Shown piece by piece: positions 8,941-62,725 of a stretch of 64,000 nt of DNA. The notes beneath the pieces were generated by a model. The model was given only the letters and a program-made list of their open reading frames with translations, was not told the origin of the DNA and did not search any database. The translations under genes and the position numbers were made by a program. The stretch lies in the NCBI GenBank assembly GCA_964187785.1, contig OZ076409.1, forward strand, positions 77,564,001-77,628,000. The letters run 5' to 3'. Every line of letters starts with the position of its first letter. Positions within the stretch are counted from its first letter, which is position 1. Source of the stretch: Amphiscolops sp. MND2022. Its lineage: Eukaryota.

Positions 8941-9380
8941 ATGTGCATCTAAGTTACAAGCATGAACTTTTACAAATTTTGAACTAATGTTTGAGCTCAT
9001 TTCTGTGAGGCAATGACTCATCAATTTCAAATGAAATTCCTTTCAGTACCTAACAAAATCTTTAACCGAAAATGGTTCAAATCAAACTGATTTTGGAAAA
9101 AATTATTTCAACGATTGTCCACGTGACTTCGTCTCTCTTGTCCGAAAGACATCGTTTTATGAAAACAAAAAAAGCAAACTTTGAGGTTTTAGGAAAGATG
9201 TAGTGAAATTACCTCAACTATTGTTAATAGTTTGAGACAACAAATTTTTTTCAGAAAAACGAAACGTTGTTACAAATGTAACTCAAGGTTCTATCTCATG
9301 TCCTTTCCTCCTCATGTTGAGCGTCGCGGATCTGCAACATTCCAATAATGATAGTAACATCGTCAAGTGCGCCAAAATAT

Positions 9381-9545
9381 TTGGGGCTCGAGCTTTGCGA
9401 GGTGCCCATATGGTGACGTTTTTGGGGCACGAGCTTTGCAAGATGCCCATATGGTGACGTTTTTGGGGCACGAGCGGAGCGAGATGCCCATATGGTGACG
9501 TTTTTGGGGCACGAGTTTTGCGAGATGCCCATATGGTGACGTTTT
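9381..9545. repeat. 41-bp minisatellite, ~4 copies
   Basis: Unit GATGCCCATATGGTGACGTTTTTGGGGCACGAG... starts at 9401, 9442, 9483, 9524. Confidence 0.95.
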
Positions 9546-12500
9546 TTTTTCGCAGGTTTCGTGACATGTGCCTATTTTTCAAACTTGTAAGGCAAATTTC
9601 TCAAAACCCAGAACAGATACGGACACCATGTTTTCGCTAAAAGTTGCGCAGGATCCAAGGCTACAATTCTGCCGAAAAAAGTTTTCGCAAAAATTTCGGC
9701 TTCATAGGTTTTTTTCAAAAGAATTTTTGAAAAAACGCTAGTTTTGACTATTTTTCATCTTTGATCCCCTATATCTCAGAAATGAGTCCAAATACAGGGT
9801 CCATGGTTTCGTAAATTGTACAAGAGTTTTATAGGCTACATTTTGGCCTAAAAATGACGTCAAAATTTTTTTCATACTTGGTGTTTTTGGGCAAAAAAGA
9901 GGACAAAAAATTTTTCGAAAATTTTTTTCTCATTCGTAGCTCATATTTCTCAAAACTGATAAAAGATACAGAAACCGTTCTCTTTCGAGAAGAACAGCAT
10001 TGATATAGGCTACTTTTTTGACCAACAAAGTTATCGTCATCAAGTTTGACGCCTTCGTTTTTCTGCCAAAAAATCTTCAATTTTTTTCAAAAAAATTTCT
10101 TGGTTCTTTTTCACTTGAGCTCGTATATCTCATGACCGAGACCAAAAATGGCGTTCATGGTTTCGTTACTTTTACGACGCTTATGTAGGTTACGTTTTAG
10201 GCTAAAGGTGATGTCGAACTTTTTTTCGGTCTGGATTTTTTTTAGCAAATAAAGTATTGAAAAAACTTTTTCTGAATTCTTTCCATTTTTTTCCAATTTG
10301 TTGCTGATATTTCTCAGAACTGAAAATAGATAAGAAAACCATTCTCCCTCACAAAGTGAGGCAAGTATGTAGGGTACTTTTTGTACTATCAAAGTTTCCG
10401 TCATGAAGTATGACGCCTTCGGGTTTCTGCCAAAAACACATTTTTTTTATTTTTCTCAAAAAAAATTTTCCTTCATCTTTTTAGTCTTTCATCAAAATAT
10501 CCTCATCTGAGACTGTATAAGTTCACGAGGTTGTGGGCGCTGGAACACAACGAATTTGTAACACCTTCTGCAGACCATTGAACGTTTCTGCTCGTGCCCA
10601 AGCGCGACATGCCGTCGCGCCTATGTTTTTTTTTCGCAGATTTCGTGACATGTGCAAATTTTTCAAACTTGTGAGACAAATTTCTCAAAACCCAGAACAG
10701 ATACGGACACCATGTTTTCGCTAAAATATGCGCAGGATCCTAGGCTACATTTTCGCCGAAAAAAGTTTCCGAAAACAATTCGGCTTCTTGGGTTTTTCTT
10801 AAAAGAATTTTTGAAAAAACGATATTTTTGACTATTTTTCATCTTTGATCCCCTATATCTCAGAACTGAGACCAAATACAGGGTCCTTGGTTTCGTAAAT
10901 TGTACAAGCGTTTTATAGGCTACATTTTGGCCTAAAAATGACGTCAAAAAATTTTTTCAAACTTGGTGTTTTTGGGCAAAAAAGAGGACGAAAAAGTTTT
11001 CGAAAAATTTTTTCTCATTCGTAGCTCATATTTCTCAAAACTGATAAAAGATACAGAAACCGTTCTCTTTCGAGAAGAACAGCATTGATATAGGCTACTT
11101 TTGGACCAACAAAGTTACCGTCATCAAGTATGACGCCTTCGTTTTTCTGCCAAAAAAACTTCAATTTTTTTCAAAAAAATTTCTGGGTTCTTTTTCATTT
11201 GAGCTCGTATATCTCATGACCGAGACCAAATATGGCGTTTGTGGTTTCATTAAATTTACGAGGCTTATGTAGGATACGTTTTAGGCTAAAAATGATGTCG
11301 AAATTTTTTTCGCTCTGGATTTTTTTAGCAAATAAAGTAGTGAAAAAATTTTACTGGAATTTTTCCATTTTTTTCCAATTTGTAACTGATTTTCCTCAGA
11401 ACTGAAAATAGATACGAAAACCATTCTCCCTTACAAAGTGAGGCAAGTATGAAGGCTACTTTCTGTACTATCAAAGTTTCCGTCATGAAGTATGACGCCT
11501 TCGGGTTTCTGTCAAAAATACAGTTTTTTATTTTTCTCAAAAAAAAATTTTCCTTCATCTTTTTTAGTTCTTTCATCAAAATATCCTCATCTGAGACTGC
11601 ATAAGTTCACAAGGTTTTGGGCCCTGGAACACAAAGAATTTGTAACACCTTCTGCAGACCAGACCTTCTGCTGTGACATGTGCCATTTTTTCAAACTTGT
11701 GAGGCAAATTTCTCAAAACCCATAACAGATACGGGCACCATGTTTCCGCCAAAAGTTGCGCAGGATCCTGGGCTACTATTTCGTCAAAAAATTTTTCGAA
11801 AAAACTTCGACTTCATGGTTTTTTTTGAAAAAAAGTTTTGAAAAAACGCAATGTCTGACTGTTTTTTATGTTTGATCGCCTATTTCTCCAAGACCAAATA
11901 CAGAGTCCATGGTTTCTTATATTGTACAAGCGTTCCATAGGCTATATTTTCGCCCAAACATGGCGTCAAAAATTTTTTCAGACTTGGTTTTTTGGGCAAA
12001 AAAAGGCATGAAAAAAAAGTCGAAAATTTTTTTCTCATTTGTAGGTCATAATTCTCAAAACTGACGAAAGATACAGGAACCCATTCTCTCTCAAGCCAAA
12101 CAGGCAGGATGTAGGCTAGTTTTTGTACCAACAAAGCTTCCGTCATCACGTATGACGCGTTCGTTTTTCTGCTAAAAATACTTACTTTTTTGAAAAATTT
12201 TCCTAAATATTTTATACTTGAGCTCCTATATCTCAGGACCGAGAACGAATACGCAGTCCATGGTTTCAGAATTTGTACCAGGGTTCAGTAGGCTGCGTTT
12301 GAACCAAAAAATGGCGTGGAATTTTTTTCGCTCTGGGTTTCTAGGCAAATAAAGGGATGAAGAAGAAATTTAAAAATTTTCCCATTTTTTCCTAATTTGT
12401 AACTGATTTTTCTCAGAACTGAAATGAGATACGAAAAACCTCTGTCCGAGCTAAAAGTTGCGCATAATCCTCAGCTACAGTTTCGTAGAAAAAAAAAATT

Positions 12501-14145
12501 TTAAAAAATCGGCTTTATGGTTTTCTTTGAAAAGAAGTTTTGAAAAAACGCAAACTTTTAGAGTTTTTCATTTTCATCCCCTATTTCTCAGAACCAAGAC
12601 CAGGTACAGGGTCCATGGTTTCGCATAATTTACAAGCATTTCATGGGCTACATTTTTGCTAAAAAATGGCGTCAACATTGTTTTCAGACTTGGTTTTTTG
12701 GGCAAAAAAGGGATGAAAAAAATTGTCGAAAACTTTTTTCTCATTCGTAGCTCATATTTCTCAAAACTGACGAAAGATACAGAAGCCATTCTCCCTCAAG
12801 GCAAACAACAAGGATGTAAGCTATAGTTTTTGTACCAATAAAGTTTCCGTCATAACGTATGACGCGTTCGTTTTTCTGCTAAAAATACTTACTTTTTTTG
12901 AAAATTTTTCTATTTATTTTATACTTGAGCTCCTATATCTCAGAACCGAGAACCAATACGCAGTCCATGGTTTCAGAATTTGTACCAGGTCTCAGTAGGC
13001 TGCGTTTGAAGCAAAAAATGGCGTGGAATTTTTTTCGCTCTGGCTTTCTAGGCAAATAAAGGATGAAGAAGAAATTTGAAAATTTTCATATTTTTTCCTA
13101 ATTTGTAACTGATTTTTCTCAGAACTCAAAAGAGATACGAAAAACCTCTGTCCGAGCTAAAAGTTGCGCATAATCCTCAGCTACAGTTTCGTAGAAAAAA
13201 ATTTTTAAAAAAATCGGCTTTATGGTTTTCTTTGAAAAGAAGTTTTGAAAAAACGCAAACTTTTAGAGTTTTTCACTTTCATCCCCTATTTCTCAGAACC
13301 AAGACCAGGTACAGGGTCCATGGTTTCGCATAATTTACAAGCATTTCATGGGCTACATTTTTGCTAAAAAAATGGCGTCAACATTGTTTTCAGACTTGGT
13401 TTTTTGGGCAAAAAAGGGATGAAAAAAATTGTCGAAAACTTTTTTCTCATTCGTAGCTCATATTTCTCAAAACTGACGAAAGATACAGAAGCCATTCTCC
13501 CTCAAGGCAAACAACAAGGATGTAAGCTATAGTTTTTGTACCAATAAAGTTTCCGTCATAACGTATGACGCGTTCGTTTTTCTGCTGAAAATACTTACTT
13601 TTTTTGAAAAAATTTTCTTAGTTCTTTTATACTTGAGCTTGTATATCTCAAGACTGAGAACGAATACGGTGTCCATGGTTTCGTAATTTGTACGAGGATT
13701 CAGTCTGCTATGTTTAATAGTAAAAATGACGTCGAACTTCTTTTCGCTCTGGTTTTATTGGGCAAATAAATGGATGAAGAAAAATTTCGAAAAAAAAATA
13801 TTTTTTCACCGAATTTTTAACTGATTTTTCTAAGTGAACGTAGATACGAAAACCATTCTCCCTCGCCGAGTTAGGCAAGGATGTAGGCTAGTTCTTGTAC
13901 TATCAAAGTTCCAGTCATCAAGTATGACGCCTACGTTTTTCTGCTAAAATTACAATTTTCGTTTTTCTCAAAATTTTTTTCATCTTTCTTTTCAGTGCTT
14001 TCATCAAAATTTTCTTGATCTGAGACTAGAGATAAGTTCACTAGGTTTTGGAACCTGGGATATGCACAATTTCCAGCACCTTTTGCAGACCATTGAACGT
14101 TTCTGCTCGAGGCCAAGCGCAACATGCCGTTGCGCCTATGTTTTT
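9545..14145. repeat. Satellite-like array, ~175-185-bp diverged monomers with ~1084-bp and ~706-bp higher-order repeats
   Basis: AGGCTAC-type motif recurs about every 175-185 bp; TTTCGTGACATGTG at 9557 and 10641; GATACGAAAAACCTCTGTCCGAGC at ~12428 and ~13134. Confidence 0.85.
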
Positions 14146-15757
14146 AATTTTTCGGCAAGAAAACGAATACTTTTGTGACTACAGACATACAAATGTTACG
14201 AGCATGGCTCGAATTGACTAATCTAACCGTTAACGTGAAGAAACGTGAGTTGATCTTTCCCCGAAAATGATAAACTGAAAAAACGTAACGATGATGTGGC
14301 AAGTACTTGAGACGAGACTACGTTTGGACAATTGCCTCGGTTTGAAAGAACCAATAGATTACATTACAAAAAAAACACTCAACTAAATAAAGTTTGCTGT
14401 CTAACTTACCCAGATTCAAACATCATATTTATCCACCATAGGACAGTCGATAAATAAATTTTCGTTTGTCGGGTGTAGTCATATAACGATCAGCAGCTGA
14501 AAAATGAAACAAAAAGAAAAAAACGAAAAAGGCGGCCGCGCAAAGCAATTTTCAATGAGAAATTCAACTAACTGCTCAGTATAGTGAGCGGGCTCTCCGG
14601 AGTGAGCTGCTCTTTATGGTAGCTTTTACGGATTTTAGAAAGTCCGGTAATTGCGGAATTTTAGTTACTGTGAACCAGGTTGTATTTCTCAATTCCGTCT
14701 TCTTTCCCCGCGAAAATCACGCTTCTGAGCTGTTGATTTTAACTTCATCTTTAATATTTTCAATTTGAACTCCTTTTCTAGAAAACAATCAATTAATTGG
14801 AATTATCGCTAAGAATTTTTCGACATTAGGCGATAATAATTATTATCACCTAACGTCGAAACATTCCTAGCGATAGTTCCAATTTGAAACAGTATACTGC
14901 GCACAGCTTTATGTTCCTGCATAAATCATCCCCGGCGCCTGAGACCACAAACTTCAAACTTCGAAGTCTGAATCGAGTTGTGGTAATTGCAGGGATCAAT
15001 GATTGTGAAATGGTGTTAAAATTTGTTGAGAATTGGAAGTTTTCCCCCTCAATTGGATGTTTCCCCCGCGAAAAACCCGCATGTGAATAAACATAACATA
15101 ACTATCATCTTTACATTGCTAATTCACATCGATTACTCATAGTTTCTCGAACGTCCAATTTGAACAATTTGAACTTCGACCGTAGAATGTTTTCTCTGGA
15201 AATTATTTTATGTCGTCAGAGTGTTCGAGAATTCCGTTTCCACATAAATATCAAACTGTTACACGATGTTATACCAACGTATGTAATGTACCTATGTATT
15301 TGGTGTTGTGCGAAAAACCTAAGTCAGCCTTCCCTCAATCTCAGCCTTCCCTCCTCCCGTTTGAGAGGAAGCGGTGTGGGAGTCTGTAAATGTGGCCATG
15401 TTCATGTAAAGTGCAATGACATATCTGTCCTCTTCGAGGACTGGCGTTACGGTTTGGTGTGCTGTTTCTGCGAAATTAAAACTCCCGAGTAGCAATGCGC
15501 ACATCCACCAATTAACACAGCAAGCATCGCCAGAAACTTCTATCAAATAATCACAACCGATAAAGCGAGTGAGTTTAATCAAATTTTCGAAGAATTAATT
15601 CATTGTTGTCCGTTCATGAAGTTGAGTAACTATAAAACCAGTCAAAAACGTGTAGATGAAGAACACAGTTCTGGATACCTCAATCAGCCGTATGAAGCCT
15701 TTTTGACCACAATGATAAGGTCTCATTTGATTATTTCACGAACCAAAAAAGAAGAAG

Positions 15758-16469
15758 TGTAACATCCACCTAGCAGCGTACATTATAGAAGTGGGATAAT
15801 GCCTAGGGTGCTTAAACAGGAGACCGTTGTCTTACTGCACCCCTATACATTAGTTCTTAATCCCGAAATGGTCTCCTAAAAGGGACTTTTTCACTGGTCT
15901 AAGGAGGCTCCTCAGTTAGACCTCCGTGGCGACGTGCCGACGCACTCAAAGTCCGGACACGTTCCACAAGCCTGTAAAAACGTATCTTAAGGTGCTAACG
16001 TTCCTGTGACTTCCTACATACTCCCGAGGTCCAAAAACAGGGGTTTAGCCAAAGTGCACTTTATTCACGAAATAACGTCTAAAACAAAGACCTAATGGGT
16101 CAAACATTATCAAGTACCTGTGAAACTACATTGATATTAACAAAATTAATCAACTAAGGTTTTTCTGGTTCTTTCATGAGGGTTTCGGAGTTCTCGATAA
16201 AGTCCATTGATGGGTTGTACGTCTTTTTCGAGTCTTCCCAGGCATTATTCGAGTTGAGATGGCACAACACTGGAATTCTCTGCCTTCTCCTTCTTCTGGG
16301 GTTCTTTTCTGCTTATTGTTTGCACATTGGGGTGGGGGAGTCCTGTGTGCTTTTTCATTGCTTCTTTTTCGTTTTTCTGAACCTGCCAGGTCGGCTATTT
16401 TGAATTGACTTATTTGATATCGCACTTTTTGAATTTCAACGAAATTTGTTCCGGCTGCCTGACGTTACA
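15758..16469 (-). mobile_element. Solo LTR (712 bp) related to the LTRs of the gypsy element at 38982-55160
   Basis: TGTAAC...GTTACA termini; 15758-15835 is the near-exact reverse complement of 55083-55160; the other end resembles 38982-39060; AAG on both flanks. Confidence 0.85.
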
Positions 16470-17680: not shown

Positions 17681-17847
17681 TAAAATTCAATGAATATATT
17701 TTTTCCAAAGACAATACCTATTTTTAAAGGGTGTCATACTCAAAAAAGTATTTTTCTTCTTTTAAAAAGTATTTATTTTCCTATATTGAAGCATCCTACA
17801 GATACGTCATCATAAGGAAAGTGGACGTCCGTTTGACTACAGGAAAG

Positions 17848-19368
17848 TGTCGCATCCCCCAAGATGCGATGGTTCCGCAGTGCAACTCTAGAAAGGAACA
17901 AGTACTGGAACCTTTTCTATAGACTCACACAAACTCTAATAAACTCATTGTGAACATGTTTTTGTACGTCGTTACTTTCAAAAGGTCATGTAGATATCAT
18001 TTCTATACTTTGCTTACCATGAAGAAACACCCATTATAGTGCTAATGTACCTTGGATTCCTGATTATGAGCCCCTATTTTCATCACAAATCTGATATTTC
18101 ACCGCTTAATCATATGAACTATAAGTTTCTGATGCATCTAAATCAACTCCGTAATAATTTGTGCTTTAACATAGTACTATTATGCGGTACTATGCGGATC
18201 GAGGTGTGACGTATACTCGTCACCATACGTTTTTGGTAATGCCATTATGCGGCATTATACGTTTCAAGGCGTGATGTATATGCGGCACGAGACGTCTTTT
18301 GTAGTAACATTATGCGGCATCCTGCGGATCGAATAGGAATGATCATACGTTATTATGCGGTTTTCGCAGGACTTATTGAACAACACTAGGACGTGCTTCT
18401 AATACTATTTAGAAACCATTTTACTTGTATCTTAACGTTGTTTTAAGATATTTCCAGGGTTCTTTAGTTTCTTCCCATCAGATACTTCCCATGATGTCAT
18501 GTAAATTGTACTATTTTTGTAACATGACCTCATTTGACGTAATTCTATTTTTATGATATTTCCATATGATGACTATAGAAAAAATGAGTGTCATGGTTTT
18601 AAATATTTTTCGCTTTTGTAATAAACTGGAAGGATTATTGAATATTTTGAACCGCATCTTGAGCAGTTGCTTTTTGAACGATTGTAAACTTCTCAATTCT
18701 CGACTACTGTAAACTCTACATCTCTGTTTTATTCCGTGATAATCAAACTAATTCAAATTCTTCCCCAAAAGCCAAAATACTTTTCACTTGAGACGAAATG
18801 GGGAATAGACGTAACAGGAGATCTAGAAGACTAGAAACCCCTTCCCCAGAGCGAAGTATGGAAAGGGCTCAAGATGAAACACCAAACACAGGTAATATTA
18901 CTTTAACTAAAAATAATGTAGTTGTTCAAGAAAATTTAGGTGAAAATAGATTCGGAGAACAATTAGTTGAACCAAGCCAAATCAGCAACGAGATACAAGC
19001 TTGGACCGAAATATTTGAGCAGAAGAACAATGATAGAATAGAGAAAATGAGAGAAGAGATGGACAATAAATTAGAAGCGATTTTAAGGGAGATCAAAACT
19101 AACAAAAGCGTGTCAACAGTCACAAATCCGAGGTCAGAAACTAATGAAATGCAAGATCCTCAACCATCGGGATCCAGAACAATAAGGTCTATAGGAGTTC
19201 ATGCATCCAACAATGAGAACTCAGAACCTGAAGACGAGGATTTTCCTCTTGAGGCTTCGAAAGCAAAAGACTTAAAACAACCCGCAAAACCTATATATGA
19301 GTCAGATGTAGATGTTACAATTCATTCGGACGAAGAATCTGATGCGGAGCCAAACGAGGATTATCACA
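17848..19368 (+). repeat. 5' LTR of family A element
   Basis: TGTCGCATCC...GGATTATCACA; direct repeat of 32614-34134, with four substitutions seen by eye. Confidence 0.98.
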
Positions 19369-20480
19369 TGGTGACAGGAGCCAACCGAAAACTCCATAGA
19401 CAAAGCTCACAAAAATTAAACGACACAATTGGATCCCACGCAGACCATAGCTTGCCAAATTTGACAACACAACCTTTTGACCCAGTGAATCAAATTGCAA
19501 TTGCCATCGAGAAATTGGCGAACAAAAACCCATCACAATCACTATTTCATCCTAAAAATACTCTCACATTCAATGGAAAAAATGAGAAAAATGAAAAATT
19601 CGAATACTTCGAAGACTTGTTCCACACAACACTTCGAATGCAACCAAACCTAACAGAAGACATGAAAATTAACCATTTTCACGCCCATCTCCGAGGTTTG
19701 GCACTAAAAACATTTAAAAACATACAAAGGACACCGACAACAACTTTAGAAGACATTCTCAAAGTTTTCCGACGAAAATATGTAAAACCGGAGTCCAGCG
19801 CATCTGCCAAACACAGATTCAATAGACTCTTCTTCGATCCAGAAAATCAAAAACTCCCGGATTTCTTAGAAGAACTCCAAGAAAGTGCTGAAAAAGCGTT
19901 TGGGGAGAACGCCCACCACATGATAGAGAACTTACTCTACGCGAAAATGCCTCCCCATCTTAAGAAGTCCATCAATCAAGCATATCTTGAAAATGGTACT
20001 TACGACCAAATCGTTAAACACCTTGAACGAGAAATGGAACTCAACGGTCTAGAGGCTGACGAACCTCTCGTCAAAACCCAAATGACGGTTACTAAAAAAG
20101 AACAAACTACCGAAAAAACTAACAAAAAACAAAACGACAAAGCCAAAAAACAAACTCCCAAAACAGTACCGGATAAGACCCTCAAGAATGATCAATGCCG
20201 TTACTGCAAAGAAACAGGACACATGATGACTGATTGTCCTAAATTAGCTAAACGACGCAAACTTGAGGCTGATCCGGATGCTGAAAAATGTCAGACTTGC
20301 AACACACCAGGTCATGATGAAGAAAACTGCTACTTTGGTGCCAATATGGAGAATCGCCCACCGAAATGGAACCTGACCGAAGCACAAAAGAAAATTATAG
20401 AAGAATACAAACAAGCCAAAAAACCAATCAGACCAAAATCAGAACGATCTCAACAAACCTCATCGAAGGATTTAAACTAG
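18798..20480 (+). CDS. gag: Gag (560 aa), starting inside the 5' LTR
   Basis: Open ORF with capsid-like segment (FNGKNEKNEKFEYFEDLF...KINHFHAHLRGLA) and two CCHC knuckles (CRYCKETGHMMTDC, CQTCNTPGHDEENC); the first ~190 codons lie in the LTR. Confidence 0.93.
   Translation: MGNRRNRRSRRLETPSPERSMERAQDETPNTGNITLTKNNVVVQENLGENRFGEQLVEPSQISNEIQAWTEIFEQKNNDRIEKMREEMDNKLEAILREIKTNKSVSTVTNPRSETNEMQDPQPSGSRTIRSIGVHASNNENSEPEDEDFPLEASKAKDLKQPAKPIYESDVDVTIHSDEESDAEPNEDYHMVTGANRKLHRQSSQKLNDTIGSHADHSLPNLTTQPFDPVNQIAIAIEKLANKNPSQSLFHPKNTLTFNGKNEKNEKFEYFEDLFHTTLRMQPNLTEDMKINHFHAHLRGLALKTFKNIQRTPTTTLEDILKVFRRKYVKPESSASAKHRFNRLFFDPENQKLPDFLEELQESAEKAFGENAHHMIENLLYAKMPPHLKKSINQAYLENGTYDQIVKHLEREMELNGLEADEPLVKTQMTVTKKEQTTEKTNKKQNDKAKKQTPKTVPDKTLKNDQCRYCKETGHMMTDCPKLAKRRKLEADPDAEKCQTCNTPGHDEENCYFGANMENRPPKWNLTEAQKKIIEEYKQAKKPIRPKSERSQQTSSKDLN
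19369..19380 (+). promoter_or_regulatory. Primer-binding site, tRNA-Leu-like
   Basis: TGGTGACAGGAG directly after the LTR terminal CA; one mismatch to the TGGTGTCAGGAG tRNA-Leu complement as I recall it. tRNA identity not verified. Confidence 0.7.
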
Positions 20481-23400
20481 AAACGCCACGCCTTTACAAA
20501 AATTCTCCACAAAAACCAAACTCATCTGATGACTGGCAGCATCAGTTGAGCCCAAAACCCACAAAAGCAACACTCGTCCAAAAAGACCTGATAACAGAAA
20601 CTTCTCAACAATCATTGACCGACTACCACACTGAAGACTTATACGAACTCCTCCGTGATTCACCGGACAACTACTTCATCAAACAACAAACCCACCCCGA
20701 AATTGACTCAAAACCCGATATTCACCACAATTCCCCCGTTAAAAATTATGTCACCATAAACACTTCTTGCGATGATAAAAAACAACCTCTACTAAATGAG
20801 GATCTCTCTGAACACCTACAATTCGACAAAGAACGAAATTTGTCATATCTTCCAATTTCAACATGTTTGACACTGAAGCGAAAACGACACATGTACTACA
20901 TACCGATGGATTTCGAAAAACTCACACTTGATGGTCTTATTGATACTGGAGCTCTCACCAGTGCAATCTCCGAACAAGACCTCAACAAAATCAAGCTGCT
21001 GGCAAACGAAGCAATTAAAGAAACCGGTCCTCCACCAAACTTCCAAATTATGGTGGCAAATGGACAAGTAGAAGTCCCCATTGGTACAGTATTACTAGAA
21101 TTCGAAGTCGCAGACTTCATGTTAAAAGAAAACTTCATCATTATGAAAAACCTACCAAACCCCTTAATCGGATTATGTTTCCTTCGAAGGAACAATGCAA
21201 TTTTTGATGTCAATCAAGGCATCTTAACTTTTCCCTACCTCTCGATGCAGCTCAAGCCTGATACACAAACAGCAATACGACAAGCAACACCATTGTTTGC
21301 CGAAAATACCTATACCCTACAACCAGGGGAAACACTTGCCATAGCAAGCAAAATGCCTCATCTGATGGATCATGATGCGACAGGAATTGTCACACCATCA
21401 CAACAATTTGAAAACCACGATAGCATATTTATCACATCATCACTCAGCACAGTCAATAATAATGCTATCGGGTATCAAATCATCAATTTTTCGGAATTGC
21501 CATATACAATAACCCTTGACACCCATCTAGCGGACTTTAAAATTCTCACCCCCGAAAAAATCAAACACATCCAACCCGTAGACCCAGCAGTACTATCTTT
21601 CATGATACAACAAGAGGAAACTACGGAAGTATACATCAACGAACTCCTCAAAGTACCACAACCAAATTCTGAACAAGAATCGTACTGGTTTCCTACCCCG
21701 GAAGACCCAGGCGATCCCGCAACATATACTCCAATACAACAACGTTTATACAACGAACTCCTTGAGTTAAAAGAACTCGAAAAACTGAACCCACATGATA
21801 ATGAAACATCCAGGAAAACATTCCTCTCAAATTTCGACTGGACAGATACAACACTTAGTTCAGAAGAACGACAAGAGATTGAAGAGATTCTGGTCGAATT
21901 CCACGACATTTTCGCCAGACATCGCTTTGATATAGGGATCAACCGCGAGTTCAAAGTGAAATTAACGCCAAATGACGACAGACCAGCTTATAGTCAAAGT
22001 TTACCGACTCCCATTAACCTCAAAGATGACATCACAGTAGAACTTGCGCTCCTACATAAATATGGTATAATCACAACCTTACCATTTTCCAAATATGCAA
22101 GCCCAATTTTTGCACAGCGCAAACCTAATGGGCGCCTTAGGCTCCTTGTAGACCTCCGGAAAATTAATAATCTCATCACTGAAAATTATGCCAACAATAA
22201 CCACCCGGTAAGCACTTTATCTGATGCAGACCAACACATGGCAGGGAAAAAACTTTTCTGCAAATTGGACTGCTCTCAGGCTTACCACTGCCTTCAAATG
22301 GCAGATTACCAATCTATCCAGATGCTTGCTTTTAATTTCGCAAGCAGAACATTTGCTTATCGTCGCCTTGCTCAGGGCCTCAGCCGATCCCTTTCTGCTT
22401 TCTCAAGCTTCATGAGGGAATACCTGGACAGAGCAATCAAAGCTGACCAATGTGCCCAATATGTTGATGACATTGGCATTGCAGTAAACGACACAAAACA
22501 ATTGTACATCAACATCAAAACCGTCTTTGAATGCATCAGAAACGCTGGATTAAAACTTTCCATGTCCAAATGTCATTTTGGAGTTAAACAAGTCGATTTC
22601 CTGGGTCGCACCATCACACCAGATGGAGTTGCCCCTCAGGCCGACAAAGTAAAAGATTTCCTCGCAAAACTCAGATTTCCAAAATCAAAGAAGGCACTAC
22701 AAAGGTATATTGGATTCCTAAACTATTACCGAAACTATATACCACGCCTCTCAGAACGTCTGACCCCGTTTTTTAAACTCCTCAAAGAAACCTCTAAATT
22801 CTACGTACCAACAAATCTAGTAGAAGACTTCACCAACCTCAACAAACTCTTGGAAAATTCTTGTCAGTTAGCGCTAAAACAACCTCTAAAAGACAAACAA
22901 CTTATCGTCATGTCCGATGCAAGCTTCACAGCAGCTGGATATGCCATCATGATAGAAGATGACCCCAACCAGAAATTACAATCCAAACGTAAAACATACG
23001 CACCCATTGCGTTTGGATCAAAATCTTTCAACCCAACACAGACGAAAATGTCGATCTATGCAAAAGAATTTCTTTCCATATATTTTGCATTCGTCGAATT
23101 TGGACACCTCATGTGGGGGAGCACCTTCCCAATCATCGTGTTCACTGACAATCGATCTGTAACCCGGTTTTTTCAAACGAAAATGATTCCTCCAGCGCTT
23201 TGGAATGCATGTGATTATGTATTACAATACAATTTTGTAATCGCCCATGTAGCTGGATCGATGAACACAGCCGCCGATTTTTTATCTAGAACTGAAGTTA
23301 ACCCAACCGGGAAGCTCGAAATGACAATTCGCAACGATATTCACACAAAAGCAATTGAAGTGAATATACAATCAACTGGAATTGTCGAAGAAGAACAAAT

Positions 23401-25351
23401 TTACATCCTTCCTGATGAAGAAATTGATGAAAATCAACTTTGGGAAGAAAAACAAAACACTCGCAATCAAGCACAAAACGAAACTCACAATGACCCAGAG
23501 AACGACGTCTCTGAATTACAGCAATTTCACAAACCTACATCCGGATTGATCTCCTGCTCCTCTGGACACTTCAAGGACAATGCGAGGATACGCCTTGAAC
23601 AGAACAATGACATAGTCCTTCGAAACCTGAGAGCCAAAATAGAAGGCGAACCGTTCGATGAAAATGAATTAGCTTCCGATTTCAGATATCAACACTACTT
23701 ACAAAACATAACACGAATCGAGATTAAACACGAAGTTCTCACACGAAAATACTATACAGATACAGGAATGATCTCGCATTACCAAATCCTCTTACCAATC
23801 CAACTTCTTGAAGAACTACTTCAAGCCCTGCATGGCCATAACTCAAACCATCCAGGAATCACTAAGATGATTCAAGAAGCACGCCAAAAATATTACTACC
23901 CATGTATGGCTAAATACATCAAAAAATGGGTCAGTAATTGTCAGGTTTGCATTCAAACAAAACGCATTAATAATGACCTCCTCAGAACTGAACTCCTAAA
24001 CTGCCCTGAATGGGATCTTGGTCCGGAAGACATCCTGCAAATGGATATTTTGCCAAACCTCCCCCCAAGTAGAGGTTATGATCATATCATCACAGCAATA
24101 GATGTCTTCTCAAGATACTTGTTTGCCTATCCTGTGACCCACATTACTGCTACGGCAGTATCAAAAGTCATCATGGATATATTATGCAAACACACTTATC
24201 TTCCAACAACTATAATAACGGATCTGGGTACTCAATTCAATGCACAAATAACCCACGAAATTGCTGCAGTACTCGGAATTGAACTCAAACATGCTACAAT
24301 GAAACATGCGCAAACAATAGGTCTTCTGGAAAGAACTCATGCCTCAGTTAAAACACACCTAAAAGCCGCGACAGGCGAATTTAGGAACAACTGGCATAAA
24401 TATCTTCCTCTGGCAGTCCTAAATCACAATACTACATACCATGCATCACTCGGGTGTGAACCCTCACGAGTTTTTCATGGACGCATACCACACAATATCC
24501 TAGACTATAAACTTGGATATAATCCAAATCCAAGATATCAACCGCAAACCGACATAGCAGACGAAACACAAAAGCGCATGAGAATACTTCTAGACCAAAC
24601 TAAGAAGAACATCATGCAATCTTACCTTAAATACAAAGCCTACTATGATCGCAAAGCAAAGGCAGCACCATTAGAAACGACGGACTATTGTTACATTCTG
24701 AACCCAAAAGCAGACACACAAGCGACGAAAATCCCGTTCCGAGAATTTAGATGGTGCGGACCATATAAAGTTGAAAAAATCCTCCCAAACATAAACTACA
24801 TAGTTAGAAGACTTGGAACTAACAAAACACAACTCCTTCATAGGATTCGTTTGCGCAAATTTACTCCGCAAGCGCCCTTAGCAGACATTTTTGTTCGTGA
24901 AACTGACTGGCAAAAAGATGATCAAATGCCAATAACAAATGATGACTTATAAGCACAATCGTGGAACACGAATTTTGGATCTAGCCCGTTTGACGATGAT
25001 CCAGTAGAAAATTCACCAAATAATGATGATGCTGAATATACTCCGATTCAAATACCAGACGAAAACCGCCCTCCCTCCCCTAGTTCTTCAAAAAATAGTG
25101 GGGGGAGCCCAGTGGACCAGACCACTGAACCTGAAAAAGAAACGAATAATGAAAATTTACAAGAGACCCATGATGATGAAGTAGAAAACCCACAAAAAGA
25201 CAGAAATATAACACCCGAAATTGATGCCCAAAATACCCCAGAAATCCCTGAAAATATCCCATCGCAAGAAGAACCCATAAATACCCGTGGTGAGAAATAC
25301 AACTTACGTCCTAACCCCAACCCAAATTACTCTGACACATACAGATATTAA
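20366..25351 (+). CDS. pol: Pol polyprotein (protease, RT, RNase H, integrase) with one in-frame TAA at 24950-24952
   Basis: LIDTGA protease; YASPIF/LRLLVDLRKIN/YVDD RT; SDAS..E..FTDNRS RNase H; HGHNSNHPG..CQVC zinc finger, QMD..TDLG..LERT DDE core, WCGPYKV. ORF 25112-25351 continues in the same frame after the stop. Confidence 0.96.
20471..20477 (+). promoter_or_regulatory. Predicted -1 ribosomal frameshift slippery site T_TTA_AAC
   Basis: X_XXY_YYZ heptamer correctly phased in gag, immediately before the gag TAG; pol is in the -1 frame. Confidence 0.8.
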
Positions 25352-25578: not shown

Positions 25579-28500
25579 TTAGTTTTTCTTGCTTTTCAAT
25601 GTCTTGCACCGAACATCTGTTGAACCTCCTTCTTGCTCACCACTGGAGCAACGGTTGAGGGAAACATTAACCCGACTTAGAGTAGGGTCTGGCGACGGGG
25701 TACTGTTGACACTACTATGTCGGCTAACACTAGGAGTGGTGGTGGTAGAGCTAACAGCAGGCTTCTCCAGCCTCAAAACGGCCTTACGATATCCCGCTTC
25801 CAGATTGCCGACTAGCGCGGATCTTCGGGAACTGCTCCCTTTAGAAAAATTCCAGATGGAAAACTTCTTATCAGACAGCAAATCAGTCCCTCGTCCCAAC
25901 AAACGGAAGGCACGACTAATAGCCTTTGAATCTTTAAACAGACTAGAGACATGAGGCACAGTTTGGTAGGAAATTTGCAGGCTAACAACACAAGAATTAA
26001 AAGAGCTCTTATCGGATTCAAGTGTAGGCATTGGTACATCGAATACAGGTGGCACTTCCACCGTCGGTGACAAGCACAAACAAGAATATCTAAACAGTAA
26101 CAGAAGTTCCGGCCTCGACTGAATTTCGTAATGAGTAGCTATAAAGGATACCCAATCTTCATACTCAGGAATGTTTTCTGTTCTCATCTTTGAAACGAAT
26201 GACCGGTACTGACTAATCACTCTCACCTTCTCAGTAGAAGAAAGCATCCCAGCAGCCACAAAGTGGGAAGATAGCTTCTCAATAGCTGTGGCGTAAACCT
26301 CTTCAGGACTCTCAAAGACTACAGGGGAATCAAATGCGGATAAACCCCTGAGCAAATTAGATTTGACGATCTCGTGGGTCAATAACTGCTTACAAAAGGA
26401 TTTGCAGAAGCTAATTGACTGCGCAATAAATTTACTGGGTCGGGATAACTTGCTGGTGAGAACCAAACGATGATAATCTTCATTGAGCACAAATTCATCG
26501 TTGCTTTTAAAAGGCAAACTAGTAGTATCCAATTCCAGTCCGAGATAAGTATCCCAATCTGAGACGCTACCCAGAATACGATCAGGCAGGATACTCTGCA
26601 GCTGTGAGTATGTAAACACGGCAAATTGGTTGAATAACCTGAAGCCACTGTCTATCTGTTTTTGGGTCTCTGGGAAGGCTGAATTATCTGAAACAACATG
26701 AGATATTCAAAAAACGAGTGATTAAATACAATAAAATGATCTTCATGACGAGTCAAACCCTACATCAAGAAGAAATAAGTCAGATCAGACCATGACTCAT
26801 GACTGAGCTTATAGTTCGTATTATTCATTGTTATTCTCGCATCAAACAATTGTTACTGCTGGTAACACTGAATACAAGTATTAGACGTCATCCTACGGTT
26901 CGAGGTGAAGCGTATATACGTCACTCCACAGAATTGCTGAGTACATTATACGTCATTATGCGGTTCGAGGTGTGACGACTATGCGTCACTATGCGGAATT
27001 GCATAGTGGACTATGCGTCATTATGCGGTTCGAGGTCTGACGACTATGCGTCACTATGCGAAATTGCATAGTGGACTATGCGTCATTATGCGGAATTGCA
27101 AATTGGACTATACGTCACTATGCGGAATTGCAAATTGGTCTATACGTCACTATGCGGAATCGCACGTTAAGCTGATGCGTCTCTTAACAATCAATACAGC
27201 GATGTCGTTGACGTGGAAAATAATTGAATAATGCGTTGTAGTTTACACAAGCCAGAATAAATCCAACAACAGATTAATAGGATATAACAATGAAAATACA
27301 AAATGTGGTACGATCTAGCTGTGCAAATACACTAACTACATGTTAAAAGGGAGTCTTAAAGGGAATTTATCAAGACATTTTGATCCACAACCGAAATTAT
27401 GGTTCCTAACCCGCCACTAGACAAAATAAACAGTAGTCTGTATGAAAGGAAAATGACTAACAGTGATCAATAACACATCTGATGATGAATAGTCTTGCCA
27501 AGAACGCTGAGTCCAATCGGAAACACTCATCAAGTGTGTTGGGCTAGAAAAACCTCACAGTTATAACACTATCTCTTGGATAACATGACAAACTGATGGA
27601 CCCTTGTAGTCACAATCTGATAAAATAATTAAACAATAATAACCTCTTTCATGTGGAAACGGTAGGCGGGTAACCTTCCAATCTGGGTTAGGTGTTCGGT
27701 CACTTGTTCCCAATTATTCGACAAGATCTCTATGAGTTTGGAAGCTTCATCAAGTGTGTATTCCAATGAAAGGACGCACTGAAAAGGGTGGCAAAGTTTT
27801 AACGAAGATCATGTAAAAGTTGACTATAAAAGTGGTATATACTACCTTATGCAATAGAGCCAGATTTTGAAGCCAATCCCGATCCAAGGCAGTGCGAAGC
27901 TTCATAAGTAGATAATCCAAAATGCTTCTAAAGTCATGCCTCTCAATAATCTTGACTGTGGGGCTAACCAAACTGCGCTCGAATTCAGTTGGTCCATATG
28001 TCTTCACAATTGAAGCAGTTTTGGCACCAGGCAAAGAAGTAATTAAACATTCATTGAGATTGTCGCTAAATCCTGTGAGTGCAACGCAAGTTGGTACCGT
28101 TTCAAATAAACTCAGGAATGAAGCAACGAGATTGAAGATTTTCCGTGGAAGAAGCATTCCTCTTGGGGCACCTCCGATACAGACGCGGTGTAGAACATTC
28201 TCAGACCAAAAATAGAGAATGACATATGTTGCTGTAGCTGTATGTTGAACCGCGAATGAATAATAACCAGTTGTAGAAATGGCCTTGATACAGTAATCCA
28301 TCAATTCCCGGAACATGTAGACGAGAATCCCCTGTAAAAGAAATATACAATGATACAATGTTCAATTACTTTACTTCAACGGAGACAAAAAATAGTAATT
28401 GCAAGATGAAAGGAAAACAATTGCCAAACTTAATAAGGTAAAGAACCTACACGAAATATTACTTACGAAAAGCCGTTGGGGGCTCCAGTTTTGGCTAGAA

Positions 28501-29925
28501 ATCCGGCTGCTGGAGGTCAACCTCACAAGTTCCTCATATACCCCAGTCAGTAGAGAGACACTTCCCCCATGTCTTAGGCCAAATTCCAAGATGCTGATTT
28601 GGGAGAACAGCTTCTCCGTAGGGCTCGTAGTTGCACTGAAGTCTGGAATGGACTCTTGCCCAACGAGAGGTCTCAGCGAATCGAGTTGAGGAGGAATTGG
28701 GTAGGAATCCCTCGCTTTCTTCTTGGCGTCTTGTAGCGATTTCCTTTTCGTCTTTGTCAAACAGAGGCATGCCAGGGACCTCCATTCGGATCCTATGTTC
28801 TCGAACTAAATGAGAATCAGTGCGGTAGTGTGAGATAAGTTCCAAGCTCCCGCGGCTCATGAGTGACAACTCCACACGACATACTCTACACCACCATTTG
28901 TATGGTGACTTGTCTTTATCCAGAGGCCCTGTCGCTGAAAATTTGAGTACGGGGTGTCGCTTGAACATACTTCCCGTTAGGGAATATTTAGGTCTTCGGC
29001 GCTTTCCTCGCACTGTTGGGGGAGATTGCCCTGCCTCTTGTTGAATTATTCCAGTACTAACACTCGCCACCATGTTTTCCTGACTAGAAGTAGTTATAAG
29101 TGTAGTGGGTGTAATGTCATCAACCACGGCAACGGACATCGGTTGGTCTAGATTACCTTCTTCTCCAGTGATGAAGGACTGTGGGATTTTGCCCAAAAAA
29201 TTAGCCAAGAAAAGAACCTCCTGTCTGGTGATACTGATAGTGGATGAGCTGGATCCAACAACTGGCTCGTTTCCTGCGGTATCTGGTCTGGTAATGCTCC
29301 CCCATGAATCTTGTTGACTCATTCCTCCTTCCTGGACAGGATTACTGGGAATCAAAGGATTGGGTAATGAACCATCAGTCCCAGTGACGAACTGACTAAA
29401 CCTCGGCGAAAGAATACGGGATGTTCCAGGGGCGTCTAAATCAGTAAAAAACTCTTGAGCAAAACTATGGCAATCCTCATCCATGGGTTTCGAAGTAGGA
29501 GCTATCTTAAGTTGAGTTGTATCAGGCTCTAGTAACGAACTTTCCTCATTACGGAGGGTCTCCTCACGAATTATTGGAGGGTCTTCGGTCAACGCTGGCT
29601 CACTGGAGTTTTCTTTTGTAGTTCCTTCGTCAATTTGCAAGACAGGTGTGCTGGGCGATTCTTGTGGAAGAGTTCGATTCAAAGTTCGTGGTGCGGCAAC
29701 TTGTAACGCAGTATAATTTTTGTCCGGGGAACTGATAGGAGTAGCTTGAGTTGTTCCTTGTTCAACTGAAACAAGCGTTTTAAACAAGCGTTTGAAAATG
29801 AAGTAAACTTTGCAAGTGAAACCCGTTTCAATGCTTCTAGAAACCGGACGCGGGGACCGGAAGTTAAAAAAGGAACGGAAATCACTTAGAAAACTGAAAA
29901 GGAAGCGCTTCAAAAGTTTGAACAT
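25579..29925 (-). CDS. Predicted spliced antisense gene, ~1090-aa zinc-finger / hAT-transposase-like protein (exons 29925-28467, 28331-27846, 27778-27644, 27543-27462, 26687-25579; one frameshift near 28740)
   Basis: Long minus-strand ORFs (463, 129, 202, 346 aa) join in frame through GT-AG introns 28466-28332, 27845-27779, 27643-27544 and 27461-26688. Contains WWCRVCRVELSLMSRGSLELISHYRTDSH. The two small exons and the start codon are the least certain parts. Confidence 0.7.
26945..27165. repeat. Tandem array with TATGCGTCA(C/T)TATGCGG core
   Basis: Repeated CTATGCGTCACTATGCGG-type units, lying in the predicted largest intron of the antisense gene. Confidence 0.9.
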
Positions 29926-30550
29926 GGCTTTGAAAATTATCTAAGCCTTTTCAATTTTGCAGGCCTGGCCAGTCTCGCAAAAATCACAAATTCAAAACAA
30001 ATTTATCAATCTAAAACCAAAAGAAATGAGTTGGACTAACGGGAAGAAAGTTCAGGCAGTTCTTCAGGGTTCCAAAAATCATCACGTTGTAATGGATTGT
30101 AGTCCTTTCGTGATCTGCGTTTTTCGCTCTGATCGGCTTCAGAATTCGCATCCATGATGAGGCAGTCGTACCAAAACAATTGGGAACTCCCACGAGAATT
30201 ATAAAGGCAAAATAAACCGTAATGAGGAGAATACTGTAGTAAACAATGATATAATCAATCTGGGAAGAAACCCGGGAAGAGAAAGTTACTGAAAAGCTGA
30301 CTCTGCAAAGACTAAAATACTTTACTGAAACTGAGACTTAAATGTGACTCTTACGATAAAAATGATCAAGCAGTAAGGCGTGGCGTAATATAGCAAACAA
30401 AGGCAAAAAAGCAAATGAGACAGATTTGCGCAAATGTGCAAAACAAATACTATGATCTGATTGGCTAATTAAATGTCAATCACGTCTGCCAGCGTGATTG
30501 ATTGACTCATTATACAACACCAACGCATAGATGTTATTTTGGTTGAAAGT

Positions 30551-30795
30551 ATACGGCAGTATGCGGATTGCAGATACAAAGTATACGGCAGTATGCGGAT
30601 TGTGAAAAAAGAATATGCGGCAGTATGCGGGTCGAGTGAAGACGTGTATGCGGCAGTATGCGGATTGTGAAAGAAGAATATGCGGCAGTATGCGAATCGA
30701 ATGAAGACGTGTATGCGGCAGTATGCGGACTGTGAAAGAAGAGTATGCAGCAGCATGCGGATTGTGAAAGAAGAGTATGCGGCAATATGCGGTTC
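30551..30795. repeat. ~30-bp tandem array with TATGCGGCAGTATGCGG core, about 8 units
   Basis: Seen directly; lies between the divergent antisense and sense accessory ORFs. Confidence 0.92.
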
Positions 30796-31627: not shown

Positions 31628-32719
31628 ATGGACAAGTTACAATTTAACTTTGAAGAAGACAGCCTTTATTCACCTCTGTCCCCCGATGTGATCGATATAT
31701 CCAGTGGTTCCGAAGATGCTTTTTCGATCGCCCCTGGTAACACCCAGCAACTAGAGGAAAAATTCAGAGTAAATCCGGCAGGAAGTAACTTGATGGCTGC
31801 ATTTGTCGGGTCATCTCTGGCGACCTTGTACCCCAACTCAACTGTGCCCCAAGGGAATCATGAAACTACAGTGGCAGGAGGCTCACAAATAGAAAAGAAC
31901 CTTATGGAACTGATGAATGACCCCCGGGATGAACCCACAGATTCCCCGGCATCATTCGTCGACAGTGAGTTTGAAGAAAGTAATCTGTTTCCCTGGATGG
32001 ACAACAGAGGCTCGACCCAGGACACAAATCACTATGGTCGGCCATGCGTTAGAGTAATGCCAGTTCTAAGGGAAAACCAGGACGAGAGTGGAGTTCTGCC
32101 GACTCCAATGTCCGAACAAACACCCAATGGAGGCCCCAATCCATCGGTTATGCAGAACACACTAACAAACGACACCATGGAATATGAACCGCATGATGTC
32201 GGAGCTCGGTTGCAAATTCCGGTCTCGAGGAACATGCAGGGGTTCAGCCTGTCCCCAATGTTGTTCCCGATGCAGATAACGGACACAGCTCAAGAAATGC
32301 ACCGAACGCCATTGATTATGCAGCAAACAGCGCAGATTAGTTTTCCCTTCAATACAGTTCACAGTTCTAATGTGTTACTAATTCCGGCCAGTGAGAGACA
32401 GGGCATCCGACTTCTGCCGACAGTTATGCCGAATGTGGCGGGGTATTGTGAACTATGCGGCAAATGTTTTGACCAAGTTGCATTGGAGACCCTCGGCCAA
32501 TACTTGGTTGCCACTGAGTTTGAAGGTGAGACTGTTAAAGAAAGAAAAATAAGGTCAAAAGCCTTTATCCACGGGTTCGAGGCAGCCTTGTTCCTTTTTA
32601 AAAAATGCGGGACTGTCGCATCCCCCAAGATGCGATGGTTCCGCAGTGCAACTCTAGAAAGGAACAAGTACTGGAACCTTTTCTATAGACTCACACAAAC
32701 TCTAATAAACTCATTGTGA
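31628..32719 (+). CDS. Accessory sense ORF of unknown function, overlapping the start of the 3' LTR
   Basis: Open frame from 31574, first ATG at 31628; acidic Ser/Pro-rich N-terminus, then YCELCGKCFD and a predicted helical segment; TATAAA at ~31432 upstream; no obvious signal peptide or transmembrane run. Confidence 0.65.
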   Translation: MDKLQFNFEEDSLYSPLSPDVIDISSGSEDAFSIAPGNTQQLEEKFRVNPAGSNLMAAFVGSSLATLYPNSTVPQGNHETTVAGGSQIEKNLMELMNDPRDEPTDSPASFVDSEFEESNLFPWMDNRGSTQDTNHYGRPCVRVMPVLRENQDESGVLPTPMSEQTPNGGPNPSVMQNTLTNDTMEYEPHDVGARLQIPVSRNMQGFSLSPMLFPMQITDTAQEMHRTPLIMQQTAQISFPFNTVHSSNVLLIPASERQGIRLLPTVMPNVAGYCELCGKCFDQVALETLGQYLVATEFEGETVKERKIRSKAFIHGFEAALFLFKKCGTVASPKMRWFRSATLERNKYWNLFYRLTQTLINSL

Positions 32720-34134
32720 ACATGTTTTTGTACGTCGTTACTTTCAAAAGGTCATGTAGATATCATTTCTATACTTTGCTTACCATGAAGAAACACCCAT
32801 TATAGTGCTAATGTACCTTGGATTCCTGATTATGAGCCCCTATTTTCATCACAAGTCTGATATTTCACCGCTTAATCATATGAACTATAAGTTTCTGATG
32901 CATCTAAATCAACTCCGTAATAATTTGTGCTTTAACATAGTACTATTATGCGGTACTATGCGGATCGAGGTGTGACGTATACTCGTCACCATACGTTTTT
33001 GGTAATGCCATTATGCGGCATTATACGTTTCAAGGCGTGATGTATATGCGGCACGAGACGTCTTTTGTAGTAACATTATGCGGCATCCTGCGGATCGAAT
33101 AGGAATGATCATACGTTATTATGCGGTTTTCGCAGGACTTATTGAACAACACTAGGACGTGCTTCTAATACTATTTAGAAACCATTTTACTTGTATCTTA
33201 ACGTTGTTTTAAGATATTTCCAGGGTTCTTTAGTTTCTTCCCATCAGATACTTCCCATGATGTCATGTAAATTGTACTATTTTTGTAACATGACCTCATT
33301 TGACGTAATTCTATTTTTATGATTTTTCCATATGATGACTATAGAAAAAATGAGTGTCATGGTTTTAAATATTTTTCGCTTTTGTAATAAACTGGAAGGA
33401 TTATTGAATATTTTGAACCGCATCTTGAGCAGTTGCTTTTTGAACGATTGTAAACTTCTCAATTCTCGACTACTGTAAACTCTACATCTCTGTTTTATTC
33501 CGTGATAATCAAACTAATTCAAATTCTTCCCCAAAAGCCAAAATACTTTTCACTTGAGACGAAATGGGGAATAGACGTAACAGGAGATCTAGAAGACTAG
33601 AAACCCCTTCCCCAGAGCGAAGTATGGAAAGGGCTCAAGATGAAACACCAAACACAGGTAATATTACTTTAACTAAAAATAATGTAGTTGTTCAAGAAAA
33701 TTTAGGTGAAAATAGATTCGGAGAACAATTAGTTGAACCAAGCCAAATCAGCAACGAGATACAAGCTTGGACCGAAATATTTGAGCAGAAGAACAATGAT
33801 AGAATAGAGAAAATGAGAGAAGAGATGGACAATAAATTAGAAGCGATTTTAAGGGAGATCAAAACTAACAAAAGCGTGTCAACAGTCACAAATCCGAGGT
33901 CAGAAACTAATGAAATGCAAGATCCTCAACCATCGGGATCCAGAACAATAAGGTCTATAGGAGTTCATGCATCCAACAATGAGAACTCAGAAACTGAAGA
34001 CGAGGATTTTCCTCTTAAGGCTTCGAAAGCAAAAGACTTAAAACAACCCGCAAAACCTATATATGAGTCAGATGTAGATGTTACAATTCATTCGGACGAA
34101 GAATCTGATGCGGAGCCAAACGAGGATTATCACA
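32614..34134 (+). repeat. 3' LTR of family A element
   Basis: Direct repeat of 17848-19368, followed by the GAAAG target duplication. Confidence 0.98.
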
Positions 34135-34157
34135 GAAAGATACTAAGAACGCTGTGA
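33564..34157 (+). pseudogene. Copy of the gag N-terminus in the 3' LTR, reading out into flanking DNA
   Basis: Matches gag residues 1-190 except two substitutions, then ends RKILRTL* in the flank. Confidence 0.85.
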
Positions 34158-39685: not shown

Positions 39686-39701
39686 TCTAGAATAGTTTCT
39701 A

Positions 39702-39718
39702 TGGCGACCACAGAGGGG
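39702..39718 (+). promoter_or_regulatory. Possible PBS, tRNA-Arg-like
   Basis: TGGCGACCACAGAGGGG, 16 nt downstream of the LTR end; resembles tRNA-Arg 3' complements from memory. Confidence 0.45.
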
Positions 39719-55160: not shown

Positions 55161-55471
55161 TGTCCGCTATCAACGTTCTGGCTAATTGGGTATGTTTTGT
55201 CAAAATTTCAAAATCCCATTTCGCGGTGTTTGTAGCTGAGAAATTCGTTAGTAGTCTCGCAATAAGAAAACTAGAAAAGACATTGGCTACAATTATGACA
55301 TATTCACACCCACCAATATCGGTGGTAAACTTGGCAAAAGTTCAGTTTGCGATGCAACCTGTGGACGCAAGTCCCAACCCAGTAAACTCAGCATATGACT
55401 TTATATTTTGTGACTTGTATTTTGTGAGGATAGTAACAGAAGAACAGGTTTCATCAAAGTGCCATACTTCA

Positions 55472-62664: not shown

Positions 62665-62669
<5 letters not shown>

Positions 62670-62722
<53 letters not shown>
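62670..62722. repeat. (TA)n microsatellite
   Basis: About 26 TA units; about 6 units at the equivalent site 61044-61056. Confidence 0.95.

Positions 62723-62725
<3 letters not shown>

Follow-up and report, generated by a model that had tools for sequence, protein, structure and literature searches.

A gag frame that starts inside the LTR and crosses the primer-binding site in an Amphiscolops Ty3/gypsy element and, apparently, across its clade

Where does the Gag protein of an LTR retrotransposon begin when the gag frame is already open deep inside its LTR? The question is raised by an element (element A) in the window, the 64,000-nt stretch of the Amphiscolops sp. MND2022 genome analysed here (contig OZ076409.1). 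Passages of PMC9911081 describe acoel genomes as AT-rich and LTR-rich, with 30% of genes trans-spliced. The original prediction had the Gag of element A starting within the LTR and reading on through the LTR end and the primer-binding site (PBS). We find that, very probably, Gag in a Ty3/gypsy clade with a protein-coding U5 truly begins with this LTR-encoded leader, which makes up its N-terminal third.

Self-comparison of the window revealed a direct repeat with only four differences between its two copies (Table 1). Both copies start with TG and end with CA, and GAAAG is found on each outer flank, so that they can be recognized as the LTR pair of a young insertion of 16.3 kb. The pol frame contains PR (196–290), RT (600–765), RH (835–967) and IN (1159–1325) domains; both RT_RNaseH and RT_RNaseH_2 scored above the cut-off, and the best matches of the RT-RH part among solved structures were foamy virus PR-RT (E 2e-31) and Ty3 RT (E 4e-27). 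This domain order and these matches make element A a Ty3/gypsy (Metaviridae) element. An assignment to Ty1/copia (Pseudoviridae) was rejected because the integrase does not precede RT. BEL/Pao elements (Belpaoviridae) are labelled by a DUF1759 Gag domain and Pao-type Pol domains, and this assignment was rejected since Gag lacks DUF1759 and pol has no Pao-type family match. For Gag itself, zf-CCHC was above the cut-off, while Ty3_capsid (E 0.012) and Retrotrans_gag were both below it; its Atlas neighbours are retrotransposon Gags (0.91–0.93), and a Foldseek search with a low-confidence Gag model gave no match under E 0.001, the best row being the Arc capsid domain (E 0.54). The in-frame stop near the end of pol is followed by 132 open codons, despite the near identity of the two LTRs.

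Table 1. Features of element A and of family B in the window (position 1 is the first nucleotide of the window; a slash marks the LTR end)
Feature	Position	Strand	Remarks
Target-site duplication GAAAG, left, 5 bp	17843–17847	+	Identical 5-mer at 34135–34139
5′ LTR, 1,521 bp, TG...CA	17848–19368	+	99.7% identity with 32614–34134
TATGCG(G/T) repeat cluster in U3, putatively enhancer-like	18179–18360	+	Six copies
TATA-like TATAGAAAAAA at 18574 and AATAAA at 18620	18574–18625	+	Motif scan; probable cap site near 18600 and short R
gag leader in U5: basic N terminus 1–12, helix 59–105, acidic linker, ending with His190 and the A of Met191	18798–19368	+	
PBS (putative) TGGTGACAGGAG, flush with the LTR, read as (M)-V-T-G	19369–19380	+	Same 12-mer after the family B LTR end
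gag ORF, 560 aa: leader, capsid-like helical domain ~255–415, two Cys/His knuckles	18798–20480	+	zf-CCHC and model
Slippery heptamer TTTAAAC directly before the gag stop; pol in the −1 frame	20471–20477	+	Frameshifting predicted
pol frame, PR-RT-RH-IN	20321–24952	+	In-frame stop at 24950–24952
Three antisense ORFs, 375, 203 and 468 codons stop to stop	25579–29940	−	No Pfam family
3′ ORF, 363 aa, crossing the polypurine-tract position and entering the 3′ LTR by 106 nt	31628–32719	+	
3′ LTR; leader frame repeated from ATG 33564 and stopping in the flank at 34157	32614–34134	+	
Target-site duplication GAAAG, right	34135–34139	+	
Family B solo LTR, 2,357 bp, target-site duplication CTAGA	35512–37868	+	Leader frame from ATG 37471 to LTR end; frame-breaking indel near 37724
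Family B partial LTR, PBS and gag start	61064–61958	−	ATG 61545; junction N/MVTG at 61147; frame-breaking indel near 61361; repeated at 62804–63624

The gag ATG lies at LTR position 951, and the 571 LTR bases from there on are all in frame, giving 190 codons plus one base; LTR self-comparison and the ORF thus bear out the predicted start inside the LTR and the open frame up to the boundary. The PBS adjoins the LTR end of element A without a spacer, and the boundary is read in frame as TAT CAC A/TG GTG ACA GGA, with the last LTR base being the A of the junction ATG. The prediction that translation continues through LTR end and PBS therefore stands, as does its claim that one sequence serves as attachment (att) end, PBS and Gag codons, which this junction reading supports. 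Its phasing, with CAC directly followed by a whole ATG, has to be corrected, since the terminal CA supplies the last base of the His codon and the first of the Met codon. The Arg-rich start and the acidic tract that it described are both present in the translated leader. In the 3′ LTR the same 190-codon span is repeated and is followed by a stop seven codons into the flank. No stop-free leader was obtained in 20,000 mononucleotide shuffles, ruling out chance of this kind as the source of the open frame, and the other five leader frames contain 7–22 stops each (13 and 22 in the remaining two sense frames).

The window contains three copies of a PBS-junction 11-mer, two of which belong to a second family, family B. 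Its leader of ~132 codons runs from ATG 37471 (61545 in the other copy) to the LTR end, with one frame-breaking indel per copy, at different sites. The minus-strand copy is part of a tandem array (60326–64000) in which a partial LTR, the PBS and ~30 gag codons are joined to (AT)n and an unrelated spacer, with a period of 1,626–1,666 bp and 97% identity between units. Whole family B Gags exist elsewhere, as found by protein search: among the 120 matches listed, 116 contain the junction and 73 start with the same N-terminal motif. The capsids of families A and B are 51% identical, and BLASTP between their leaders found no likeness. Both families have LTRs of 1.5–2.4 kb and a TGG-type PBS. In family B, a TATA box (37310) and the last upstream ATG (37330) precede the gag start at 37471. 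The Gag of family B matched DUF1759 above the cut-off, which suggested a BEL/Pao element and hence convergence between superfamilies; this was rejected, since its capsid aligns with that of element A at 51% identity, and the match is therefore read as a cross-match of capsid domains.

Selection on the leader, a check proposed with the original prediction, could be measured in family B. Over 130 gap-free codons the two copies show 12, 8 and 35 differences at the first, second and third codon positions, corresponding to 35 synonymous and 20 non-synonymous changes and a dN/dS of 0.11 for this one pair of copies, both of which are now frame-broken. A value this low was reached in none of 2,000 random placements of the same substitutions. 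The upstream part of the same LTR gave 0.60–0.79 in three frames, with flat position counts and seven indels; the antisense frame that shares third positions gave 0.16, and all antisense frames of the leader contain stops. The in-LTR leader of family B has thus been under purifying selection. For family A the tests were at the protein level. In all of 21 rows, leader substitutions were more conservative than simulated neutral change (z 0.3–4.6, rows not independent), and none of 300 neutral runs was still open at the 35–41% identity of the most distant leaders, with the caveat that the database favours open frames. Frame conservation is partly ascertained for the same reason, because protein databases contain open frames only. 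Conservation of the leader is modest (mean pairwise 0.27–0.88 per 10 residues, versus 0.8–0.99 in the capsid). The two leader differences between the LTRs of element A are both non-synonymous; a sample of two carries no information, but it lends no support either. Free disruption of the leader in otherwise intact copies would have spoken against a coding role; the 98 cluster members listed, 14 per cluster for seven clusters, include 48 whole Gags and 12 LTR-only ORFs, and the break lies within the leader in ~16 and within the body in ~28, in line with the 190:370 length ratio, so that breaks per codon are no commoner in the leader than in the rest of Gag. The frame kept across lineages and the low dN/dS in family B support a leader that behaves like coding sequence.

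The layout, which had been treated as a quirk of one element, is found across a clade. A search with the full Gag found 2,875 proteins among 8,000 scored candidates, the best 120 of which are 60–98% identical. In 22 aligned rows, hand-picked for full length and spread, M1, G2, N3, R7, R8, R11 and H190–G194 are invariant, and indels in the leader keep the frame. With the leader alone as the query, the 120 matches listed are mostly short proteins; 102 of them fit the junction pattern (the 18 without it were left out), and while 15 of these run on into gag, 87 diverge after His190. LTR-only ORFs must end in ...CAC A plus random flank, and the residue after His190 indeed comes from a codon starting with A in 85 of these 87, compared with 41 of 86 one position further; mutated gag continuations account for three of the 87 (82 of 84 without them) and a misplaced match for one. 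The LTR end is therefore fixed family-wide without recourse to DNA. LTR-only ORFs stop at the junction also in a family of 62% identity (P0163–P0165, P0167 and P0175), and a third lineage with an unrelated leader has the same break point (P0599 versus P0448). A profile search over 1.84 billion representatives gave 1,950 matches; in the best 150, many of them family A rows, 26 of 28 junction-like internal motifs follow an H, D or N, all of them residues with xAC codons, as is to be expected from an LTR that ends in ACA. All 14 Gags with a complete N terminus that we chose over the capsid tree have leaders of 114–223 codons that begin with a basic stretch (4–7 K/R among the first 15 residues) and are net acidic thereafter, and they fall into about six groups without mutual likeness; for six distant lineages or proteins (P0452, P0455, P0460, P0493, P0568 and P0607) the LTR end is read from the motif alone. 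Judged from these sequences, the in-LTR gag start with an (H, D or N)/MVTG junction appears to be a clade-wide layout, which confirms and widens the original claim. No related loci were found in the metagenome, viral and prokaryote contigs searched.

Some members vary the junction itself. In P0498, P0452, P0456, P0460 and P0464 the motif is repeated in frame two to three times at a spacing of 11–14 residues, as if att/PBS segments had been duplicated in tandem; P0498 and P0452 show that a duplicated junction can leave the frame intact. P0607, P0446 and P0579 carry H/MAT instead of H/MVT, which suggests a different primer site within the same layout.

What kind of protein is encoded by the leader? 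No Pfam family matched it under E 0.1, and its Atlas cluster matches stayed under 0.8. AlphaFold2 leaves the leader of element A disordered except for one 47-residue helix, modelled with pLDDT 85–91 over residues 71–100 at the segment predicted to be coiled-coil-like; the family B leader was modelled with a helix at 52–86, at low confidence. Three copies of residues 50–112 were modelled as a parallel bundle with contacts at residues 62, 66, 69, 73, 77, 81, 84, 88, 92, 95 and 99 (score 0.47, best control 0.00; contacts agreeing by at least 88% between runs, pLDDT at least 73). The oligomer mark used was calibrated on two copies only: in microbes 21 of 30 solved pairs reached it, against 0 of 23 single chains, and in eukaryotes 17 of 29 against 0 of 30. 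The copy number of three was our choice, and amphipathic helices readily pass oligomer predictions. As modelled, the leader helix can self-associate. We read the leader as a candidate matrix-equivalent of Gag, in which a targeting tail and an oligomerizing helix would be followed by a linker loose enough to accommodate the att/PBS letters.

Other readings of the open frame have to be weighed against this one. Gag proper could start at the junction ATG (19368) as a Ty3-type CA-NC protein, leaving the upstream frame untranslated or as a minor long isoform. Ty3 itself gets by with a Gag that lacks a matrix-like region, database proteins beginning with MVTG do exist (8 of the 150 best representatives, and P0125, P0131 and P0132), and all 22 aligned rows have Met191. 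However, this Met is forced by the terminal A of the LTR and the TG of the PBS, so that its conservation is uninformative on initiation, and ORF callers pick it whenever the leader is broken. From 18798 to 19368 there are also 14 ATGs (four in frame, ten out of frame), the junction ATG has C at −3, there is no acceptor-like splice site near it, and the leader of family B is under purifying selection. We consider a start at the junction very unlikely, and the shorter Gag isoform that the original prediction derived from it finds no support. Somewhat different is the idea that translation of the leader yields an accessory protein of its own, for instance from LTR-only transcripts or through proteolysis within the acidic linker, with no part in the assembled Gag. 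It would agree with leaders that share no detectable sequence between lineages whose capsids are 51–69% identical, with the long linker that is disordered in the model, and with the numerous LTR-only ORFs (87 clusters among the 120 matches listed); the N-terminal domains of retroviral Gags are also normally cleaved off. A separate gene, however, needs no continuity across the junction, and the frame is continuous there in every whole Gag examined (48 of the 98 listed members), while cleavage following assembly is compatible with a leader that is part of Gag. An accessory protein is thus an unlikely reading.

The remaining two readings do without a leader protein or without a leader in the LTR. 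An open frame that is a mere by-product of an A-rich, T-poor U5, or of a constraint on the RNA, is extremely improbable: the composition of the leader (41% A, 20% T) does lower stop density, but the shuffles that preserve this composition were never open and the other two sense frames have 13 and 22 stops; the third-position excess and low dN/dS of family B argue against it too, and the junction RNA folds less stably than its shuffles (z +1.4), with no special fold at the LTR/PBS junction. That the LTR boundary was mis-called, the repeat having been lengthened by a recent duplication of gag at the 3′ end, is almost inconceivable. A coding U5 of this length is admittedly unusual, but the TG...CA ends come with a perfect target-site duplication, the same end recurs in the LTR-only ORFs (85 of 87), and the family B solo LTR, with a duplication of its own, ends at the equivalent codon.

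If the leader is indeed the start of Gag, expression may proceed as follows. The last upstream ATG (18593) comes after the TATA-like box, and the next 205 nt up to 18798 are free of ATG; box, gap and AATAAA would agree with a short R that begins at a cap near 18600 and is followed by a long, protein-coding U5. Transcription would then start behind the box, and the poly(A) signal 20-odd bases past the cap would be ignored at the 5′ LTR and used only at the 3′ LTR. The first AUG reached by the ribosome would be 18798, which stands in a strong context, and the frame read from it crosses the integrase attachment end and the PBS. These two sites fix the codons xAC-ATG-GTG-ACA-GG and hence (H, D or N)-M-V-T-G, which would fall within a linker flexible enough for the protein to accept them. 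The leader would be kept as a protein, as selection indicates for family B and as is probable for family A. Its basic tail may serve RNA, membrane or nuclear targeting, which we do not distinguish, and the modelled parallel coiled coil may aid Gag oligomerization. From LTR replication one would expect a minus-strand strong-stop DNA of ~770 nt (about 0.5–0.8 kb), and each 3′ LTR and solo LTR would carry promoter and leader ORF into host DNA. Either gag may have grown upstream into U5 or the LTR end may have moved into gag.

The PBS may resemble the 3′ end of a tRNA-Leu; the window contains no tRNA gene. Self-priming was rejected as the start of replication, as the LTR has no complement to the PBS longer than 7 nt, and Rfam gave no match in 17800–38000. 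Between pol and the 3′ LTR, the 468-codon antisense ORF ends in a Cys/His pattern that looks zinc-finger-like by eye. Arrays similar to the U3 TATGCG cluster lie upstream of the antisense ORFs (26957–27151) and between the divergent antisense and 3′ ORFs (30560–30786), suggesting internal promoters. The 3′ ORF has TATAAA ~195 nt upstream of its start, and shares with gag the 10-base start context GACGAAATGG, which occurs in the window only at 18792, 31622 and 33558. A second gypsy-like element (39082–55161), decayed and with 605-bp LTRs that are 91% identical, has the conventional layout, a TGGCGACC site being found 16 nt downstream of the 5′ LTR. Part of this LTR recurs in inverted orientation at 15758–16128. 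A satellite of ~350-bp units occupies 9380–14150, with higher-order periods near 706 and 1,084 bp and 41-bp tandem repeats before it.

How does element A compare with known systems? The GAG of Ty1 starts in the LTR, and its IN precedes RT. Passages of PMC4974528 place the Ty1 PBS within the GAG ORF from RNA nucleotide 94 on, leaving at most ~30 codons before it, and the 5′ PBS segment of Ty3 outside the ORF. The principle of a PBS inside gag is therefore already known. Element A thus resembles Ty1 in a gag ORF that covers LTR end and PBS, and differs from it, by that account, in having 190 codons before the PBS as well as in its PR-RT-RH-IN order. With Ty3 and typical Ty3/gypsy elements it shares this order, the CCHC knuckle, the RT-RH similarity and the gag-pol frameshift layout; in contrast to the noncoding 5′ PBS given for Ty3 in those passages, its U5, att end and PBS are all coding, and it has four extra ORFs. 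Arc and foamy virus Gag carry an N-terminal coiled coil ahead of the capsid, in a domain that is not known to be LTR-encoded. The order coiled coil, linker, capsid recurs in element A, where the coiled coil is modelled, but its leader is LTR-encoded and has no likeness to any Pfam family or Atlas cluster. HIV nef and MMTV sag are accessory genes overlapping U3; the 3′ ORF of element A is nef-like in crossing the polypurine-tract position into U3, whereas neither of these overlaps is a U5-encoded part of Gag. A literature search found no long in-LTR gag start in a gypsy element, which is weak evidence of absence given literal phrase matching and the older or subscription papers and supplementary repeat tables outside its reach. 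What differs here is the scale (114–223 codons), a modelled folded segment under selection, the persistence of the layout in a clade despite turnover of the leader, and the consequence for solo LTRs.

Taken together, the cis signals of these LTRs are heavily overprinted with protein: a third of Gag lies in U5, and integrase end and PBS serve as codons, while element A also has its polypurine tract and U3 start inside a second ORF. For annotation this means that hundreds of orphan genes will be predicted from LTR-only ORFs and that Gags will be cut short, with the junction Met as their start; a DUF1759 match can also place relatives wrongly in BEL/Pao. Repression by 3′-tRNA fragments is reported in passages of PMC12853362 as validated at 5′ UTR sites, and a coding PBS might give shelter from it. 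A solo LTR in such a genome would be a promoter with about 110–220 codons, not a promoter alone. It is possible, though doubtful, that 3′ LTRs and solo LTRs act as expression cassettes for a basic-tailed, self-associating Gag fragment with a host-flank tail; since the coiled coil is kept and capsid and nucleocapsid are absent, such a fragment could join the assembling Gag and poison it. The p22 of Ty1 is a Gag fragment that acts as a copy-number brake, and the leader fragment would be its N-terminal counterpart. If this is true, the brake would grow with each insertion and each solo LTR, and the host would gain a very large supply of promoter plus N-terminus modules for chimeric genes.
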